Assembly (NCBI RefSeq): GCF_024502345.1
Contig: NZ_JALDNN010000001.1
Source: Escherichia coli
GTDB lineage: Bacteria > Pseudomonadota > Gammaproteobacteria > Enterobacterales > Enterobacteriaceae
Length of the DNA: 64,000 nucleotides
Direction: 5' to 3' (one strand)
Each line of letters opens with the position of its first letter. Position 1 is the stretch's first letter. The notes beneath the pieces are model-generated. The model did no database searches, had not been told where the DNA came from, and worked only from the letters and a program-made list of their open reading frames with translations. Shown here piece by piece: positions 1-56,635 of the stretch. The position numbers and the translations under genes were made by a program.

Positions 1-316
1 GATCCATTTCATACTCTTCTTTATTTCTTCGTTTTTACCCTTCCTTTCTTGTTCTTGTTTTCATTTCCGTGAAGTGGATTCCACCGTCCAGGGCTAATGC
101 CAAAATCGGGCCTCATTGAACGCATTAATGTTGTGTTGTTGCACGGTGAGCCGCTATGGCGCGCTTTTTATACTGCTATTGCCAGATATAAACACGCGCC
201 GTATTCGGCGAACGACCTATAAAAACGGCAAAAAACACCCTACGTCACCTCTGATTTCCTGGCGATGTCGCAGTCCAGAGTGAGCGTGGCTAACGCGAAT
301 TTTCAGGAGTGCAACA

Positions 317-16998: not shown

Positions 16999-17670
16999 AT
17001 GCAGTACCCGATTAACGAGATGTTCCAGACCCTGCAAGGTGAGGGTTACTTTACCGGCGTCCCCGCCATTTTTATTCGTTTACAGGGATGCCCGGTTGGC
17101 TGTGCCTGGTGCGACACCAAACACACCTGGGAAAAGCTTGAGGATCGGGAAGTCTCCCTTTTCAGCATTCTGGCGAAGACCAAAGAGAGTGATAAGTGGG
17201 GGGCGGCGAGCAGTGAAGACTTGTTGGCTGTCATTAGTCGCCAGGGATACACCGCGCGGCATGTGGTGATTACGGGTGGTGAGCCTTGCATTCATGATTT
17301 GCTACCACTGACTGATCTGCTCGAAAAGAACGGTTTTAGCTGCCAGATCGAAACCAGTGGTACTCATGAGGTACGCTGCACACCGAATACCTGGGTTACC
17401 GTATCACCAAAGCTGAACATGCGCGGCGGCTATGAAGTGTTGTCACAGGCACTGGAGCGAGCCAACGAAATCAAGCATCCAGTGGGGCGCGTACGTGATA
17501 TTGAAGCACTGGATGAACTACTGGCAACGCTGACCGATGATAAACCGCGAGTCATTGCACTGCAGCCGATTAGCCAAAAGGATGATGCCACACGTTTGTG
17601 CATTGAAACCTGCATTGCGCGTAATTGGCGTTTGTCGATGCAAACACATAAATATCTAAATATTGCCTGA
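16999..17670 (+). CDS. queE: 7-carboxy-7-deazaguanine synthase (radical SAM)
   Basis: 223-aa ORF with the unusual radical-SAM cysteine cluster CxxxxxxxxxxxxxCxxC (CPVGCAWCDTKH). Confidence 0.88.
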   Translation: MQYPINEMFQTLQGEGYFTGVPAIFIRLQGCPVGCAWCDTKHTWEKLEDREVSLFSILAKTKESDKWGAASSEDLLAVISRQGYTARHVVITGGEPCIHDLLPLTDLLEKNGFSCQIETSGTHEVRCTPNTWVTVSPKLNMRGGYEVLSQALERANEIKHPVGRVRDIEALDELLATLTDDKPRVIALQPISQKDDATRLCIETCIARNWRLSMQTHKYLNIA

Positions 17671-18009
17671 TTAAACATTTATAAGCGTTATAAATGGGTG
17701 GAACCTGTAAAGACTTCTACTCATTTATATTGTTTGTCGCCTCTGAAAACTCCTCCATTTTACCCATCCAGGGCTAATCATTAGCATTCTCTACAAATTC
17801 TGTGGCATTAATTTTTCGCTGGAGTGAAAATTATTGCGGTAAAGTTTGGTAGATTTTAGTTTGTATAGAGTTATTTTAAATATTTACCTTTTTAATCAAT
17901 GGATTAAGTGCTCTTTAACATAATGGATGTGTTGTTTGTGTGATACTATAAAGTTGGTAGATTGTGACTGGCTTAAAAAATCATTAATTAATAATAGGTT
18001 ATGTTTAGA

Positions 18010-18832
18010 GTGTTCCCCGCGCCAGCGGGGATAAACCGCGCGATTTGTTAGCGCCCGTTGCGCCTGGTGGGTGTTCCCCGCGCCAGCGGGGATAAACCGC
18101 GCGAGTTCGTGCGCATGGGGCGCATTTTTGGCGTGTTCCCCGCGCCAGCGGGGATAAACCGCGGCGTTCATGCCCTCCAGCACTGTTACGCGGGTGTTCC
18201 CCGCGCCAGCGGGGATAAACCGTAGTCAAGCGGTAATTCATCGCCTGCAGATCCGAGTTCCCCGCGCCAGCGGGGATAAACCGGCTAATTTACGTAATTT
18301 ACGTGCTATTGCACTGAGTTCCCCGCGCCAGCGGGGATAAACCGTGGGTCATGCCGGTGATCGCCTGCCCGTCGTGGAGTTCCCCGCGCCAGCGGGGATA
18401 AACCATCACCACCGCTTGTCATAAAATTAGCGTCATAGAGTTCCCCGCGCCAGCGGGGATAAACCGGGGAGTGGCACTTCTGGGGTAGCGGCGGCCCTGA
18501 GTTCCCCGCGCCAGCGGGGATAAACCGTCAACGCGCTCAGACGTTGCGTGAGTGAACCAGAGTTCCCCGCGCCAGCGGGGATAAACCGAAATATCCAGGG
18601 CTGGGCTGGAGGCAGACGGCGAGTTCCCCGCGCCAGCGGGGATAAACCGGCGTTGATGTTCTTGCGGGTGTTGCAAATATTGAGTTCCCCGCGCCAGCGG
18701 GGATAAACCGTTTCAGCAGTTCAGCGTAACACCGACGGTCACGAGTTCCCCGCGCCAGCGGGGATAAACCGCCCGGAATGCATTCTGAAGGTTTGCTGTA
18801 TATGAGTTCCCCGCGCCAGCGGGGATAAACCA
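18010..18832 (+). CRISPR. type I-E CRISPR array, 14 repeats and 13 spacers, leader on the low-coordinate side
   Basis: 29-bp repeat G(T/A)GTTCCCCGCGCCAGCGGGGATAAACCG at 18010, 18071, 18133, 18194, 18255, 18316, 18377, 18438, 18499, 18560, 18621, 18682, 18743, 18804; spacers 32 bp (one of 33). Confidence 0.97.
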
Positions 18833-19286: not shown

Positions 19287-19424
19287 ATATTCCTTGTAAA
19301 AACAGGGATAAACCGAACTAGTTAAAGTTTTTATTATGTTCCCTGCATCAGCGGGGATAAACCGGACTTGTTATCATTTTTTAAGTTGTCGAACTTATGT
19401 TCCCCGCGTCAGCGGGGATAACCA
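19287..19424 (+). CRISPR. degenerate CRISPR remnant (2-3 eroded repeats)
   Basis: cagggataaaccg (19303-19315), atgttccctgcatcagcggggataaaccg (19336-19364), atgttccccgcgtcagcggggataacca (19397-19424); one 20-bp and one 32-bp interval. Confidence 0.65.
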
Positions 19425-19437
19425 TTTAGGTATGTTC

Positions 19438-19470: not shown

Positions 19471-20949
19471 TCACGCATTCGACCAGCTCTGGATCGAATC
19501 CACATTCCCCAATTCCCCATGCATCACTTCATACGATTTTTTCAGGATCACATCAGTATGTTTGGTTAGGTCTTTGAAAATGCCTTTATTCATCGCGTCG
19601 TAGCGTTTGGCATTGCTCTCAATCGGTATAAAGATATCTTTCACGCGAACCATCTTATCAACAGCCGTTGCGTAATCCGGGTATAGCCCCAGACCTACCG
19701 CTGTATTAATCGCTGCTCCCAGACTTGCACAACCGTTAATGGCGTTACGGCGTGCCGGAAGGTTGAACACGTCGGCAAAAATTTGCATAAACAGATCGCT
19801 GTTCGAACCGCCGCCAGTAATGATCACATGCTTCGCAAAGTGATTCATTTCATTACACATATTGTCGTAATTGTTCTTCAGCGTTAGCGCCACGCTTTCC
19901 AATATCGAACGATATATCCATGCGTAATCCATGCTGGAATCAAAGCCGATCATAATCCCGCGTTTGTACGGTTCCCACGGATTGGTCAGCCAGTCCAGCA
20001 CCGTCATCAGCCCATTACAGCCAGGTGGCACACTAGAGGCTTTCTTGTTGAGTAAATCTTCCGGTGAAAGATCCTGCGCCCTGGCATCCTGAATTAACGA
20101 CTCGCCTAACATGTCACGCAGCCAGCTCACCGTCCACATACCTTTGCGAATACCGTAACCTTCATACAGCAATGTTTGCGGAATAGAAGACATAATCGGC
20201 CAGTACGCCACCGGATCTTTCGGCAGTGCTTTGCCGTTCATCATCAATGCGATGTAAGTGCCAAGAGAAATTACCGCAGTTTCATCATCCAGTAATCCGG
20301 CCCCCAGAGCTTCTACCGGTTTATCACTGGTGGTACAAACAACCGGCAGTCCTGCCGGGAAATGTGTCGCCAGTGCGGCTTGTGGTGTGATATGTCCGAG
20401 GACGGTGCCAGGCATTTGCACATCAAACAGCATATGACGGGGGATATTAAACTTATCCATTACCGCAGCATCTTCGCTCCATGCCCAGCTCTTATAATCC
20501 ACCGGCCACTGACCAAAATAGTTGGCGATATTGTCTTTAAACTCGCCGGTTAAGCGATGCGTCAGATAACCCGAAAAAGAGGTGACATACGCCACGTCAG
20601 GATTCGTATGTTCGTAAGGGCGTGTAACGCGTGCATCCTGCCAGCTAATCAACGGCGCAGCTGGCGTGCCGTCGGCTTTCAATAACGCACGGCAGCAACG
20701 GATGGAGCCCAGGCCGATGCCAACAATATCTTCTTTATTCCCGGCAAACTGGCTCATCAAATCGTGACCTGCAAAACATAATGATGCCCATAAATCGTCG
20801 TCAGGATGTTCTGCAGTATCGGCATAAGGCGTGTGCATCGGCTGTAATAAGCCTTTACCTTCGCAAACCACATTACCTTCCAGATCGTACATCACCACTT
20901 TTGTGCTCTGACTTCCGCCATCAATCCCTATGATGTATTTTTTCGACAT
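19471..20949 (-). CDS. ygcE: FGGY-family carbohydrate kinase
   Basis: 492-aa ORF with FGGY kinase N- and C-terminal signatures (IGIDGGSQSTKVV, GGGSNSDLFMQIFADV). Confidence 0.85.
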   Translation of the reverse strand: MSKKYIIGIDGGSQSTKVVMYDLEGNVVCEGKGLLQPMHTPYADTAEHPDDDLWASLCFAGHDLMSQFAGNKEDIVGIGLGSIRCCRALLKADGTPAAPLISWQDARVTRPYEHTNPDVAYVTSFSGYLTHRLTGEFKDNIANYFGQWPVDYKSWAWSEDAAVMDKFNIPRHMLFDVQMPGTVLGHITPQAALATHFPAGLPVVCTTSDKPVEALGAGLLDDETAVISLGTYIALMMNGKALPKDPVAYWPIMSSIPQTLLYEGYGIRKGMWTVSWLRDMLGESLIQDARAQDLSPEDLLNKKASSVPPGCNGLMTVLDWLTNPWEPYKRGIMIGFDSSMDYAWIYRSILESVALTLKNNYDNMCNEMNHFAKHVIITGGGSNSDLFMQIFADVFNLPARRNAINGCASLGAAINTAVGLGLYPDYATAVDKMVRVKDIFIPIESNAKRYDAMNKGIFKDLTKHTDVILKKSYEVMHGELGNVDSIQSWSNA

Positions 20950-38231: not shown

Positions 38232-38443
38232 GTGTTCCCCGCGCCAGCGGGGATAAACCGGGGCCGACGGTCGCAGTATTGGACCATTTCAAGTGTTCCC
38301 CGCGCCAGCGGGGATAAACCGACTCTTACATGCTTAATCAGATTCTGGCGGATGTGTTCCCCGCGCCAGCGGGGATAAACCGGGCGCACTGGATGCGATG
38401 ATGGATATCACTTAGAATTCCCCGCCCCTGCGGTAGAACTCCC
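38232..38443 (+). CRISPR. short type I-E CRISPR array: 3 intact repeats, 3 spacers and a degenerate terminal repeat
   Basis: GTGTTCCCCGCGCCAGCGGGGATAAACCG at 38232, 38293, 38354; 32-bp spacers; degenerate repeat gaattccccgcccctgcggtagaactccc at 38415-38443; truncated leader 38136-38231. Confidence 0.92.
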
Positions 38444-38463: not shown

Positions 38464-39501
38464 TCAAGACGCCTTCGCCAGCTCCTTCACCAACGGTAGC
38501 ATTATCCGCATAACGTCACGGCAGCGACGTTCTATTCTTCCAGGAAGTGCCTTATCAATATGCTGTTGATTATCCAGTCTTACGTCATGCCAGCTATTTC
38601 CCGCAGGGAATGCGGCTGTTTTTGCGCGTTGCTGATAACCATCCTTATTCCCAAGATTCCAGTTAGTCGCTTCCACCGAAAGTACAGCAATGCCCGCTTT
38701 GTCGAATATTTCTGCGTCATTACAACACCCAGTGCCTTTCGGATAATTTTTATTCAGACTCGGATTGGTCGTTGCGGCTATTCCGTGACTGCGCGCAATT
38801 GCCAGCGCCCTGTCGCGCGTTAATTTCCTTACTGATTCAGGGGTTTTTACACCGCTGTTGAAATACAATTTATCGCCAACAATTAAGTTATCGAGATTAA
38901 TCACCAGCAGCGTATTTTTCTTTTCGGTGTCACTCATCCGCTTGAGTAAATTCTCAGCGCCTAATTTCCCTTCCTCTTCGCCGCTGGTCGCCACAAATCG
39001 AATACCATACTCGGTAGGCGTATTTTTCAGGCGTTCTGCCAGTTCCAGCATGACACCTAAACCTGCGGCGTTATCATCCATTCCTTGTAACGTCAGCCCG
39101 CCGAGATTGGCATCGGCGTCAGCATCGCTCAGCGGGGCGTAAGTATCCAGATGCGCCATAATGATGATCTGCTGCGGCGCTTTGCCTTCATGAGCGGCAA
39201 TCACCGTACTTCCCGTCACGTTATGCCAGCTCTTACGATTATCGCGGGCGGTATAAATATACCGACTATTAAATGTCCGAATATCACTGCGATAACCCAT
39301 TTGCTGAAACTGTTGGCGAATATAATCGGCAGATAACATTTCTGCAGGAGTTCCGGTCATGCGTCCCGGAAAGAAAGTAGCAATATGTCGTGCCTGAGTA
39401 TTAGCAAAATCGCCAGGTTTAGGTGACGAGGCGTGTACGGGGAGAATAAAGCATACGCCGAGCGCCAGGGCAGCGGTACGGTGGCGCAATGCGGAAAACA
39501 T
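38464..39501 (-). CDS. iap: alkaline phosphatase isozyme conversion aminopeptidase
   Basis: 345-aa ORF with signal peptide and M28-type metallopeptidase features; position next to the array and cysD. Confidence 0.88.
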   Translation of the reverse strand: MFSALRHRTAALALGVCFILPVHASSPKPGDFANTQARHIATFFPGRMTGTPAEMLSADYIRQQFQQMGYRSDIRTFNSRYIYTARDNRKSWHNVTGSTVIAAHEGKAPQQIIIMAHLDTYAPLSDADADANLGGLTLQGMDDNAAGLGVMLELAERLKNTPTEYGIRFVATSGEEEGKLGAENLLKRMSDTEKKNTLLVINLDNLIVGDKLYFNSGVKTPESVRKLTRDRALAIARSHGIAATTNPSLNKNYPKGTGCCNDAEIFDKAGIAVLSVEATNWNLGNKDGYQQRAKTAAFPAGNSWHDVRLDNQQHIDKALPGRIERRCRDVMRIMLPLVKELAKAS

Positions 39502-47328: not shown

Positions 47329-48468
47329 ATGAGCGCGGGAAGCCCAAAATTCACCGTTCGCCGCATTGCGGCTTTGTCACTGGTTTCGCTATGGCTGGCA
47401 GGCTGTTCTGACACTTCAAATCCACCGGCACCGGTCAGCTCCGTTAATGGCAATGCGCCTGCAAATACCAATTCTGGTATGTTGATTACGCCGCCGCCGA
47501 AAATGGGGACGACGTCTACAGCCCAGCAACCGCAAATTCAGCCGGTACAGCAGCCACAAATTCAGGCCACTCAACAACCGCAAATCCAGCCAGTGCAGCC
47601 AGTAGCTCAGCAGCCGGTACAGATGGAAAACGGACGCATCGTCTATAACCGTCAGTATGGGAACATTCCGAAAGGCAGTTATAGCGGCAGTACCTATACC
47701 GTGAAAAAAGGCGACACGCTTTTCTATATCGCCTGGATTACTGGCAACGATTTCCGTGACCTTGCTCAGCGCAACAATATTCAGGCACCATACGCGCTGA
47801 ACGTCGGTCAGACCTTACAGGTGGGTAATGCTTCCGGTACGCCAATCACTGGCGGAAATGCCATTACCCAGGCCGACGCAGCAGAGCAAGGAGTTGTGAT
47901 CAAGCCTGCACAAAATTCCACCGTTGCTGTTGCGTCGCAACCGACAATTACGTATTCTGAGTCTTCGGGTGAACAGAGTGCTAACAAAATGTTGCCGAAC
48001 AACAAGCCAACTGCGACCACGGTCACAGCGCCTGTAACGGTACCAACAGCAAGCACAACCGAGCCGACTGTCAGCAGTACATCAACCAGTACGCCTATCT
48101 CCACCTGGCGCTGGCCGACTGAGGGCAAAGTGATCGAAACCTTTGGTGCTTCTGAGGGGGGCAACAAGGGGATTGATATCGCAGGCAACAAAGGACAGGC
48201 AATTATCGCGACCGCAGATGGCCGCGTTGTTTATGCCGGTAACGCGCTGCGCGGCTACGGTAATCTGATTATCATCAAACATAATGATGATTACCTGAGT
48301 GCCTACGCCCATAACGACACAATGCTGGTCCGGGAACAACAAGAAGTGAAGGCGGGGCAAAAAATAGCAACCATGGGTAGCACCGGAACCAGTTCAACAC
48401 GCTTGCATTTTGAAATTCGTTACAAGGGGAAATCCGTAAACCCGCTGCGTTATTTGCCGCAGCGATAA
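47329..48468 (+). CDS. nlpD: murein hydrolase activator lipoprotein NlpD
   Basis: 379-aa ORF with lipobox LAGC, Q/P-rich repeat linker, LysM and C-terminal M23-like domain. Confidence 0.92.
47524..47622 (+). repeat. imperfect 24-bp tandem repeats inside nlpD (Q/P-rich linker)
   Basis: cagcaaccgcaaattcagccggta repeated about 3-4 times with substitutions, encoding QQPQIQPV-like units. Confidence 0.8.
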
Positions 48469-55376: not shown

Positions 55377-56635
55377 GATAAAAACTCTCTTTGGGCTCGT
55401 GAAAAAAAGGCTTCATCACCGAAGTTGCCAGATTTAAGGGCGAGTGAGACAGGCTTATCCAGTGCGTTTACCCACGGCACGCCGGGGGAAATGGTTGGGC
55501 CAATATGAAACCCTTTTATGCCCAGGCTCTGTGTGACTACGCCGGAGGTCTCACCGCCTGCGACAATAAAGCGTGTCACGCCTTCCGCTGCTAACCGCGC
55601 CGCTAGTTGAGAAAACAGAGTTTCTACTGCCTGACTGGCTTTTTGTGCACCGTATTGCTGTTGAATTGCTGCCAATGCGTCAGTGCTGGCGGTGGCAAAA
55701 ACCAGTGGAGCAAGTACACTTTCCTGGCCCAGAACCCACTCTGCCAGTTCGTGTGCATAAGCGGCCAGAGTTTCGGTTGAGAGGCAGCGTGCCACATCAA
55801 CTTCACGGGCTGGTGCAATTTGACGGTAATGTGCCACCTGGCGGTTGGTCATTTGAGAGCATGAACCGGAGAGCACTACGCCGCGCCCAGCGAGCGGACG
55901 CCCTGCTTCGCGAGCCTGGTTACCGTTTTCTTGCGCCCACTGCCGGGCCAGGCCAATCGCCAGACCAGAACCGCCCGTTACCAGTGGGGCATCGCGCAAG
56001 GCTTCTCCCTGAATTTCCAGATGGTGTTCGGTCAGCGCATCAAGCACCGCGTAGCGGTAGCCTTCTTGCTGTAAGCGAGCCAGCTCTTGACGAACGGCAT
56101 CCACACCTTGTTCGAAAACATGTGCCGAAACGACGCCGCAGCGCCCTGTGGATTGCGCTTCAACCAGACGGGGAAGATAGCTGTCGGTCATGGGATTTAC
56201 CGGGTGATGGCGCATCCCGGATTCGGCCAGCAGTTGATTCATTACGAACAAATACCCCTGATAAACCGTACGTCCGTTGACCGGCAGGGCCGGAGAGAAG
56301 ACCGTAAACGGCGTGTCGAGAGCATCCATTAATGCATCGGTAACCGGGCCAATATTACCTTTCGCCGTACTGTCGAAAGTAGAGCAGTATTTGAAATAGA
56401 TCTGTTTGCAACCTTGCTGTTGCAACCAGCTCAGAGCCGCCAGCGATTGCTGTGTGGCTTCAACCACCGGACAGGAGCGCGTTTTCAGGCTGATCACCAG
56501 TGCGTCGATTGCTTCCGGCATTTTACCTGTTGGAACACCGTTAATTTGTACCGTTGGTAGACCGTTTTCCACCAGAAAACTGGCGATATCCGTCGCGCCG
56601 GTAAAATCATCGGCGATAACGCCAATCTTGATCAT
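55373..56635 (-). CDS. ygbK: four-carbon acid sugar kinase family protein
   Basis: 420-aa ORF with N-terminal IADDFTGATD motif. Confidence 0.8.
   Translation of the reverse strand: MIKIGVIADDFTGATDIASFLVENGLPTVQINGVPTGKMPEAIDALVISLKTRSCPVVEATQQSLAALSWLQQQGCKQIYFKYCSTFDSTAKGNIGPVTDALMDALDTPFTVFSPALPVNGRTVYQGYLFVMNQLLAESGMRHHPVNPMTDSYLPRLVEAQSTGRCGVVSAHVFEQGVDAVRQELARLQQEGYRYAVLDALTEHHLEIQGEALRDAPLVTGGSGLAIGLARQWAQENGNQAREAGRPLAGRGVVLSGSCSQMTNRQVAHYRQIAPAREVDVARCLSTETLAAYAHELAEWVLGQESVLAPLVFATASTDALAAIQQQYGAQKASQAVETLFSQLAARLAAEGVTRFIVAGGETSGVVTQSLGIKGFHIGPTISPGVPWVNALDKPVSLALKSGNFGDEAFFSRAQREFLS

Follow-up and report, generated by a model that had tools for sequence, protein, structure and literature searches.

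A 9-bp head-to-tail duplication inside a type I-E CRISPR2 spacer of Escherichia coli

Spacer 5 of the CRISPR2 (CRISPR 2.3) array in an Escherichia coli contig contains a 9-bp unit repeated head to tail, and we consider it likely, with a probability of about 0.85, that this is an ordinary, old, vertically inherited type I-E spacer whose duplication is a property of the DNA from which it was captured. The stretch that we analyzed (the window) comprises 64,000 nucleotides of contig NZ_JALDNN010000001.1 (RefSeq assembly GCF_024502345.1). Public genomes already contain both the spacer and its array, with annotation. The duplication is real and the feature that it marks is ordinary, without evident function and without a mechanistic message.

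The CRISPR2 array and the duplication in spacer 5

The array is built on a partially palindromic 29-nt repeat, GAGTTCCCCGCGCCAGCGGGGATAAACCG, which occurs in 14 copies with 0 mismatches in its 26-nt core, where 0 copies are expected by chance. Its period is 61 nt, with 12 spacers of 32 nt and one of 33 nt (spacer 2, 18100-18132), and the spacing is undisturbed at spacer 5. The repeat consensus, the 61-nt period, and the unique 32-nt spacers identify it as an E. coli type I-E CRISPR array, and the queE and ygcE flanks, together with the AT-rich leader on the queE side, identify it as the CRISPR2 (2.3) locus. We follow the published locus names for E. coli, CRISPR2 / CRISPR 2.2-2.3 and CRISPR1 / 2.1 (PMC10910852). 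The leader end was assigned from the direction of the repeats and from the accumulation of new spacers at that end. Downstream, an AT-rich gap of about 0.45-0.5 kb separates the array from the degenerate repeats of the CRISPR 2.2 remnant. Coordinates of these and other features are given in Table 1.

In structure, the window array does not differ from E. coli CRISPR2, the "CRISPR II" of K-12 that lies between ygcE and ygcF/queE. The two have in common the 29-nt repeat, the 32-nt spacers, the 61-nt period, and the AT-rich leader, as well as the flanking genes and the AT-rich gap that leads to the 2.2 remnant, and an iap-side array stands ~20 kb away both in the description of E. coli CRISPR2 and in the window (PMC10910852). 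The repeats begin with GTGTTCC in the four leader-proximal copies (18010-18222) and with GAGTTCC in the ten older ones (18255-18832). The single spacer of the CRISPR 2.2 remnant (GACTTGTTATCATTTTTTAAGTTGTCGAACTT) was conserved in all eight related strains inspected.

Table 1. Features of the CRISPR2 and CRISPR1 regions of the window and positions of the sibling spacer X in other loci
Feature	Position	Strand	Basis or remark
queE (ygcF), upstream flank	16999..17670	+	TIGR04322, E = 4.7e-111
AT-rich leader before first repeat	about 17800..18009 (start approximate)	+	window sequence
Whole array, 14 repeats and 13 spacers, E. coli CRISPR2 / CRISPR 2.3 locus	18010..18832	+	repeat matching; orthologous annotated loci
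Type I-E repeat upstream of spacer 5 (perfect)	18255..18283	+	
Spacer 5 (32 nt)	18284..18315	+	window sequence; fifth of 13 counted from the AT-rich leader
Head-to-tail duplication, TAATTTACG x2 + T, period 9, 2.1 copies	18286..18304	+	10-match run at lag 9
8-bp perfect palindrome TTACGTAA at junction of the two 9-mer units	18290..18297	.	read from sequence
Type I-E repeat downstream of spacer 5 (perfect)	18316..18344	+	
Degenerate repeats, CRISPR 2.2 remnant with one conserved spacer (spacer 14)	19287..19427	+	nomenclature of PMC10910852
ygcE (FGGY-family carbohydrate kinase), downstream flank	19471..20949	-	profile search and annotation of orthologous loci
In-frame cas3'-'cas2 fusion ORF, 753 aa	35874..38135	+	Cas3 profile 4-665 of 878, then Cas2e 20-87 of 87
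Small cas-adjacent array CRISPR1 / 2.1, 3 perfect repeats and 2 spacers	38232..38384	+	
Degenerate terminal repeat of CRISPR1, after a third spacer	about 38415-38443		
iap	38464-39501	-	
Spacer X, locus L004	1500-1531		
Spacer X, locus L005	1500-1531		
Spacer X, metagenome contig L007	596-627		

An earlier note on this DNA had described a 9-bp head-to-tail duplication within the spacer at 18284-18315, and comparison of the spacer with itself bears this out. At a lag of 9, spacer 5 (GCTAATTTACGTAATTTACGTGCTATTGCACT; AT-rich, 66%) gives 10 consecutive matches, with one copy of the unit at 18286-18294, the other at 18295-18303, and then a T at 18304. Tandem Repeats Finder did not call this duplication in the window, its score lying under the threshold; the program did call tandem repeats at 582-611 (15 nt x 2), 47527-47589 (24 nt x 2.6), and 56520-56566 (24 nt x 2).

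Repeats of this strength were counted as 32-mers in which 10 or more successive positions match at some lag between 4 and 15. They arise at a rate of 1.5e-4 in uniform random sequence and of 6.4e-4 in random sequence with the base composition of spacer 5, and the rate among the 62,290 real 32-mers of the window outside the arrays was 4.5e-4 (~1 in 2,000), contributed by 3 loci. The probability of one such repeat over the 15 spacers of the window is <1%, and about one such spacer is expected among roughly 1,000 or more distinct known E. coli spacers; for CRISPR1 alone, 946 spacer clusters have been reported (PMC10910852). Among the other 45 distinct spacers that we collected from related arrays (see below), none had a run longer than 7. 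A repeat as strong as that of spacer 5 is uncommon, not anomalous.

Carriers of spacer 5 and the origin of the duplication

A megablast query composed of spacer 5 and 14-15 nt of each flanking repeat showed that 17 of 5,426 complete E. coli genomes carry the spacer with 100% identity, as a single copy each and in every case inside an annotated CRISPR. A word-11 BLAST of the 32-mer against the 5,426 genomes returned the same 17 carriers and found no 23-nt or 41-nt form. These public carriers, which include KL53, NCTC9064, CFSAN051542, G3/10, RM9088, TOK-001, and ML775, hold the spacer at 32/32 identity, in the same array and with the same neighboring spacers as the window.

We fetched 8 of the 17 carrier loci and parsed their arrays, which together with the window array yielded 46 distinct spacers, 45 of them 32 nt long and one 33 nt long. 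All eight arrays sit between queE and ygcE (the locus is annotated as CRISPR in KL53, NCTC9064, and others), and all eight keep the spacer order 4-5-15-16-17-18-19-6-...-8-9-10-11-12-13, varying solely through internal deletions and additions at the leader end. The rank of spacer 5 counted from the leader varies among strains because other spacers have been added upstream: it is first in KL53, CFSAN051542, and TOK-001, second in NCTC9064 and ML775, and fifth in the window. Spacers 15-19 are missing from the window array, which bears three private spacers at its leader end. None of the 5,426 complete genomes contains the window array in full, and this full spacer set, notably spacers 1-3 and 7, is what distinguishes the array from known E. 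coli arrays. In strains 730V1 and RM9088, position 22 of spacer 4 (18223-18254) has a C/T point variant.

The E. coli Cas1-Cas2 complex inserts DNA of a fixed length, which allows the captured length to serve as a ruler for the history of a spacer. Because spacer 5 is 32 nt long, identical in 17 genomes, and without 23- or 41-nt variants, the duplication was most likely already present in the captured DNA. The earlier note had also considered slippage as its origin, and the canonical length and the uniformity of the 17 carriers speak against that suggestion. Short tandem duplications do come from slippage, and the repeated unit is AT-rich, but a second copy of TAATTTACG made by replication slippage in the array after integration would need a 23-nt precursor or would yield a 41-nt spacer, whereas all 46 distinct spacers are 32 or 33 nt long, no length variants occur in the 17 carriers or across the 5,426 genomes, and the 61-nt periodicity is intact at the spacer 5 unit. 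We therefore regard slippage within the array as having hardly any probability.

If the duplication was captured along with the spacer, the events may be pictured as follows. The Cas1-Cas2 integrase would have taken 33 bases of foreign DNA to make spacer 5, and the captured DNA would most likely have lain beside an AAG protospacer-adjacent motif (PAM), the G of which supplied the final base of the repeat. That DNA, from some phage, prophage, or plasmid, would already have held TAATTTACGTAATTTACGT, and either replication slippage or the repetition of a codon triplet would have produced the 9-bp duplication in this source (the only frame open in both spacer 5 and its sibling, described below, gives N-L-R-N-L-R). 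Another E. coli lineage would have sampled, separately, a related source that had no second copy of the 9-mer, giving this sibling spacer. Given intact cas genes, spacer 5 would be processed into a 61-nt crRNA guiding Cascade; in the present strain, it is an inert relic. Elsewhere in the array, the repeat at 18377-18405 has a terminal A, not G, and therefore the PAM-derived base of spacer 7 would not be G.

A sibling spacer and the search for the source

A second spacer, X (AATAATTTACGTGATATTGCACTGGCACCAAC), resembles spacer 5. It is the first (leader-proximal and newest) spacer of the cas2-iap array, CRISPR1, and is carried by five complete E. coli genomes (H1, STEC409, B379, ETEC1746, and ET846) and by metagenome contig L007; its placement was read directly in two of the five genomes, and the other three are known from the word-11 BLAST. 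X matches spacer 5 at 20 of 21 nt and has one copy of the 9-mer, not two. The stretch common to both is TAATTTACGTG[A/C]TATTGCACT, after which X runs on as GGCACCAAC; immediately before it stands AA in X and the first 9-mer copy in spacer 5. A 32-mer would overlap one of 5,000 distinct spacers to this extent by chance with a probability of only ~2e-5, and X and spacer 5 therefore come from related source sequences. The two were thus captured independently, from related sources with and without the duplication.

The alignment of the two spacers is ambiguous. Without gaps, at an offset of 9 nt, they agree at 20 of 24 positions, and from the same start with a 9-nt indel they agree at 21 of 24, where the same-start alignment begins after the PAM-derived G and 24 is the number of known positions. 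Under both alignments, the target of X had no perfect second copy of the 9-mer, and X does not settle how that copy arose. Frame +1 is open in both spacers, reading A-N-L-R-N-L-R-A-I-A in spacer 5 and N-N-L-R-D-I-A-L-A-P in X, and a 9-bp change would keep the frame, but three of the six frames are open. A coding source for spacer 5 is plausible.

The earlier note had proposed capture from a repetitive region of a mobile element. The part of this proposal that holds is capture together with the duplication; the repetitive region fares less well, as X has one copy and no protospacer was found. Spacer 5 could in principle derive from repetitive noncoding DNA, such as plasmid or phage iterons or operator repeats, and its direct repeat with the embedded palindrome TTACGTAA resembles a protein-binding site, while an AT content of 66% is as in regulatory DNA. 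However, X, from a related target, has one copy that continues into unrelated unique sequence, one frame is open through both spacers, and neither an iteron-like nor any other match appeared in 72,556 plasmids and 50,697 phages, so that we consider such an origin unlikely. Since the target of X has one copy, the source of spacer 5 seems to have been the site of a local 9-bp duplication or difference and not repeat-rich DNA.

The two spacers can also be written as one composite, AAG-GCTAATTTACG(TAATTTACG)TG[C/A]TATTGCACTGGCACCAAC. It is conceivable, if very improbable, that a single unsampled invader gene supplied both, in the form of two alleles sampled at one shared PAM, that an in-frame 9-bp tandem duplication within the protospacer gave escape from an X-type crRNA, and that spacer 5 was then reacquired from the escaper. 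On this reading, the duplication would give escape because pairing with an X-type crRNA breaks after position 11. If this were true, the pair would be a natural record of CRISPR escape by duplication.

A database search for the protospacer, which the earlier note had named as the way to check the spacer's origin, returned none, either in an ordinary gene (the outcome that the note had named as refuting it) or elsewhere. BLAST of spacer 5 against 50,697 phages found no protospacer, the best match being an 18-mer in the dut gene of T5-like phages (E = 0.9), and BLAST of spacer 5 and X against 72,556 plasmids gave nothing above chance. Across the 5,426 E. coli genomes, prophages and plasmids included, both spacers matched arrays only: all 22 matches lie in CRISPR arrays, and of the 2 matches without CRISPR annotation, the one in STEC409 was read and is an array. 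A self-targeting test of the window at up to 3 mismatches gave one match to spacer 5, with no second copy outside the array.

Further collections were scanned with exact patterns, namely, spacer 5 with every sixth base masked, its 5' 20-mer, its 3' 21-mer (which would catch the unduplicated form too), the shared core plus GG, the 3' 20-mer of X, and both spacers with third-codon positions masked. IMG/VR gave 0 matches for spacer 5 and X, also in a protein-pattern scan, and the GTDB species representatives gave 0 matches as well. The JGI metagenomes gave 1 match, an E. coli array with X, and no target. When 22 spacers of these array families were concatenated and compared with phages and plasmids by BLAST, no target appeared at E <= 0.05, and the single match was to an E. 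coli chromosome that is listed among the plasmids. Because these 22 spacers are also without a target, a missing target is the rule in these arrays and does not single out spacer 5. This is in line with the published finding that, after extensive search, ~40% of E. coli CRISPR1 spacers were still without a target (PMC10910852). A full-text literature search for spacer 5 and X on both strands found no paper, and the spacers are absent from one supplement of PMC10910852.

Two known coliphage genes were weighed as the site of the protospacer, the dUTPase gene of T5-like phages and the gene for the virion RNA polymerase of N4-like phages. About 300 T5-like phages have an exact match (18/18) to positions 14-31 of spacer 5 in dut, N4 gp50 matches X at 21 of 23 positions, and each match lies in the reading frame of its gene. 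With E values of about 0.9 each, however, both are at the level of chance for the phage database. The T5 match does not extend beyond the 18-mer (20/32 overall) and has no PAM, and the N4 match reaches only 22-23/32 (23/32 ungapped for spacer 5). We collected 18 N4-like loci from IMG/VR with a 400-aa N4 segment, one of which is N4 itself; the 17 others (16 of them clear orthologues) match worse than N4, their best values being 16-22/32 (spacer 5) and 16-19/32 (X), and neither spacer fits the conserved flanks of the N4-like loci (IER...GVDIRHK). We therefore rejected both genes, in the members sequenced so far, as chance matches, and a protospacer in either has next to no probability.

The window offers another overlap of this kind. 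Spacer 11 (18650-18681, GCGTTGATGTTCTTGCGGGTGTTGCAAATATT) shares 23 exact nt with a spacer of the cas-adjacent array of L007 (TTCTTGCGGGTGTTGCAAATATTCTCCACGTA, about 105-136, minus strand), at an offset of 9 nt. The L007 spacer is preceded by ATG, an alternative type I-E PAM. The two would be overlapping protospacers of one target, taken by different arrays. The 21-nt overlap of spacer 5 and X and the 23-nt overlap of spacer 11 and the L007 spacer resemble the overlapping or repeated protospacer sampling of type I-E systems (hot spots and primed adaptation). Unlike the pairs seen in type I-E adaptation experiments, those described here stand in natural arrays of different strains and are known from the spacers alone, and the targets of spacer 5 and X differ in sequence.

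State of the cas locus and meaning of the spacer pair

The intact cas set (cas3, cse1, cse2, cas7, cas5, cas6e, cas1, and cas2) is not present in the window. The genes cse1, cse2, cas7, cas5, cas6e, and cas1 are deleted, leaving no Cascade, Cas6e, or Cas1 encoded, and we found no cas open reading frame (ORF) between cysH and the CRISPR1 leader other than the cas3-cas2 fusion. In the fusion ORF, three quarters of Cas3, from its N-terminal side, are followed in frame by the last 68 residues of Cas2e. Because of the deletion from cse1 to cas1, the strain is unable to process crRNA, to interfere, or to acquire spacers, and both of its arrays are relics. The same kind of cas3-cas2 junction is found in 19 complete E. 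coli genomes as a single-piece match at ~94% identity; one of them, NZ_OZ510750, is also a carrier of spacer 5. KL53 (NZ_CP030919 2727000-2745000, L033) has a separate cas deletion, which has removed cas7 and cas5 and joined cse2 to a fragment of cas6e; between its cysH and cas3 lie an IS421 and a hok/gef gene.

The significance of the duplication is small, in that an odd-looking spacer proves to be a normal member of a well-known array. The pair formed by spacer 5 and X points to an invader family that would have been met by two lineages and is absent from all of the collections searched, and the CRISPR-Cas locus of the present strain is a deletion relic. Together, the spacer pair and the cas deletion fit the view that many E. 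coli type I-E arrays are fossils, with part of their targets unknown (PMC10910852).
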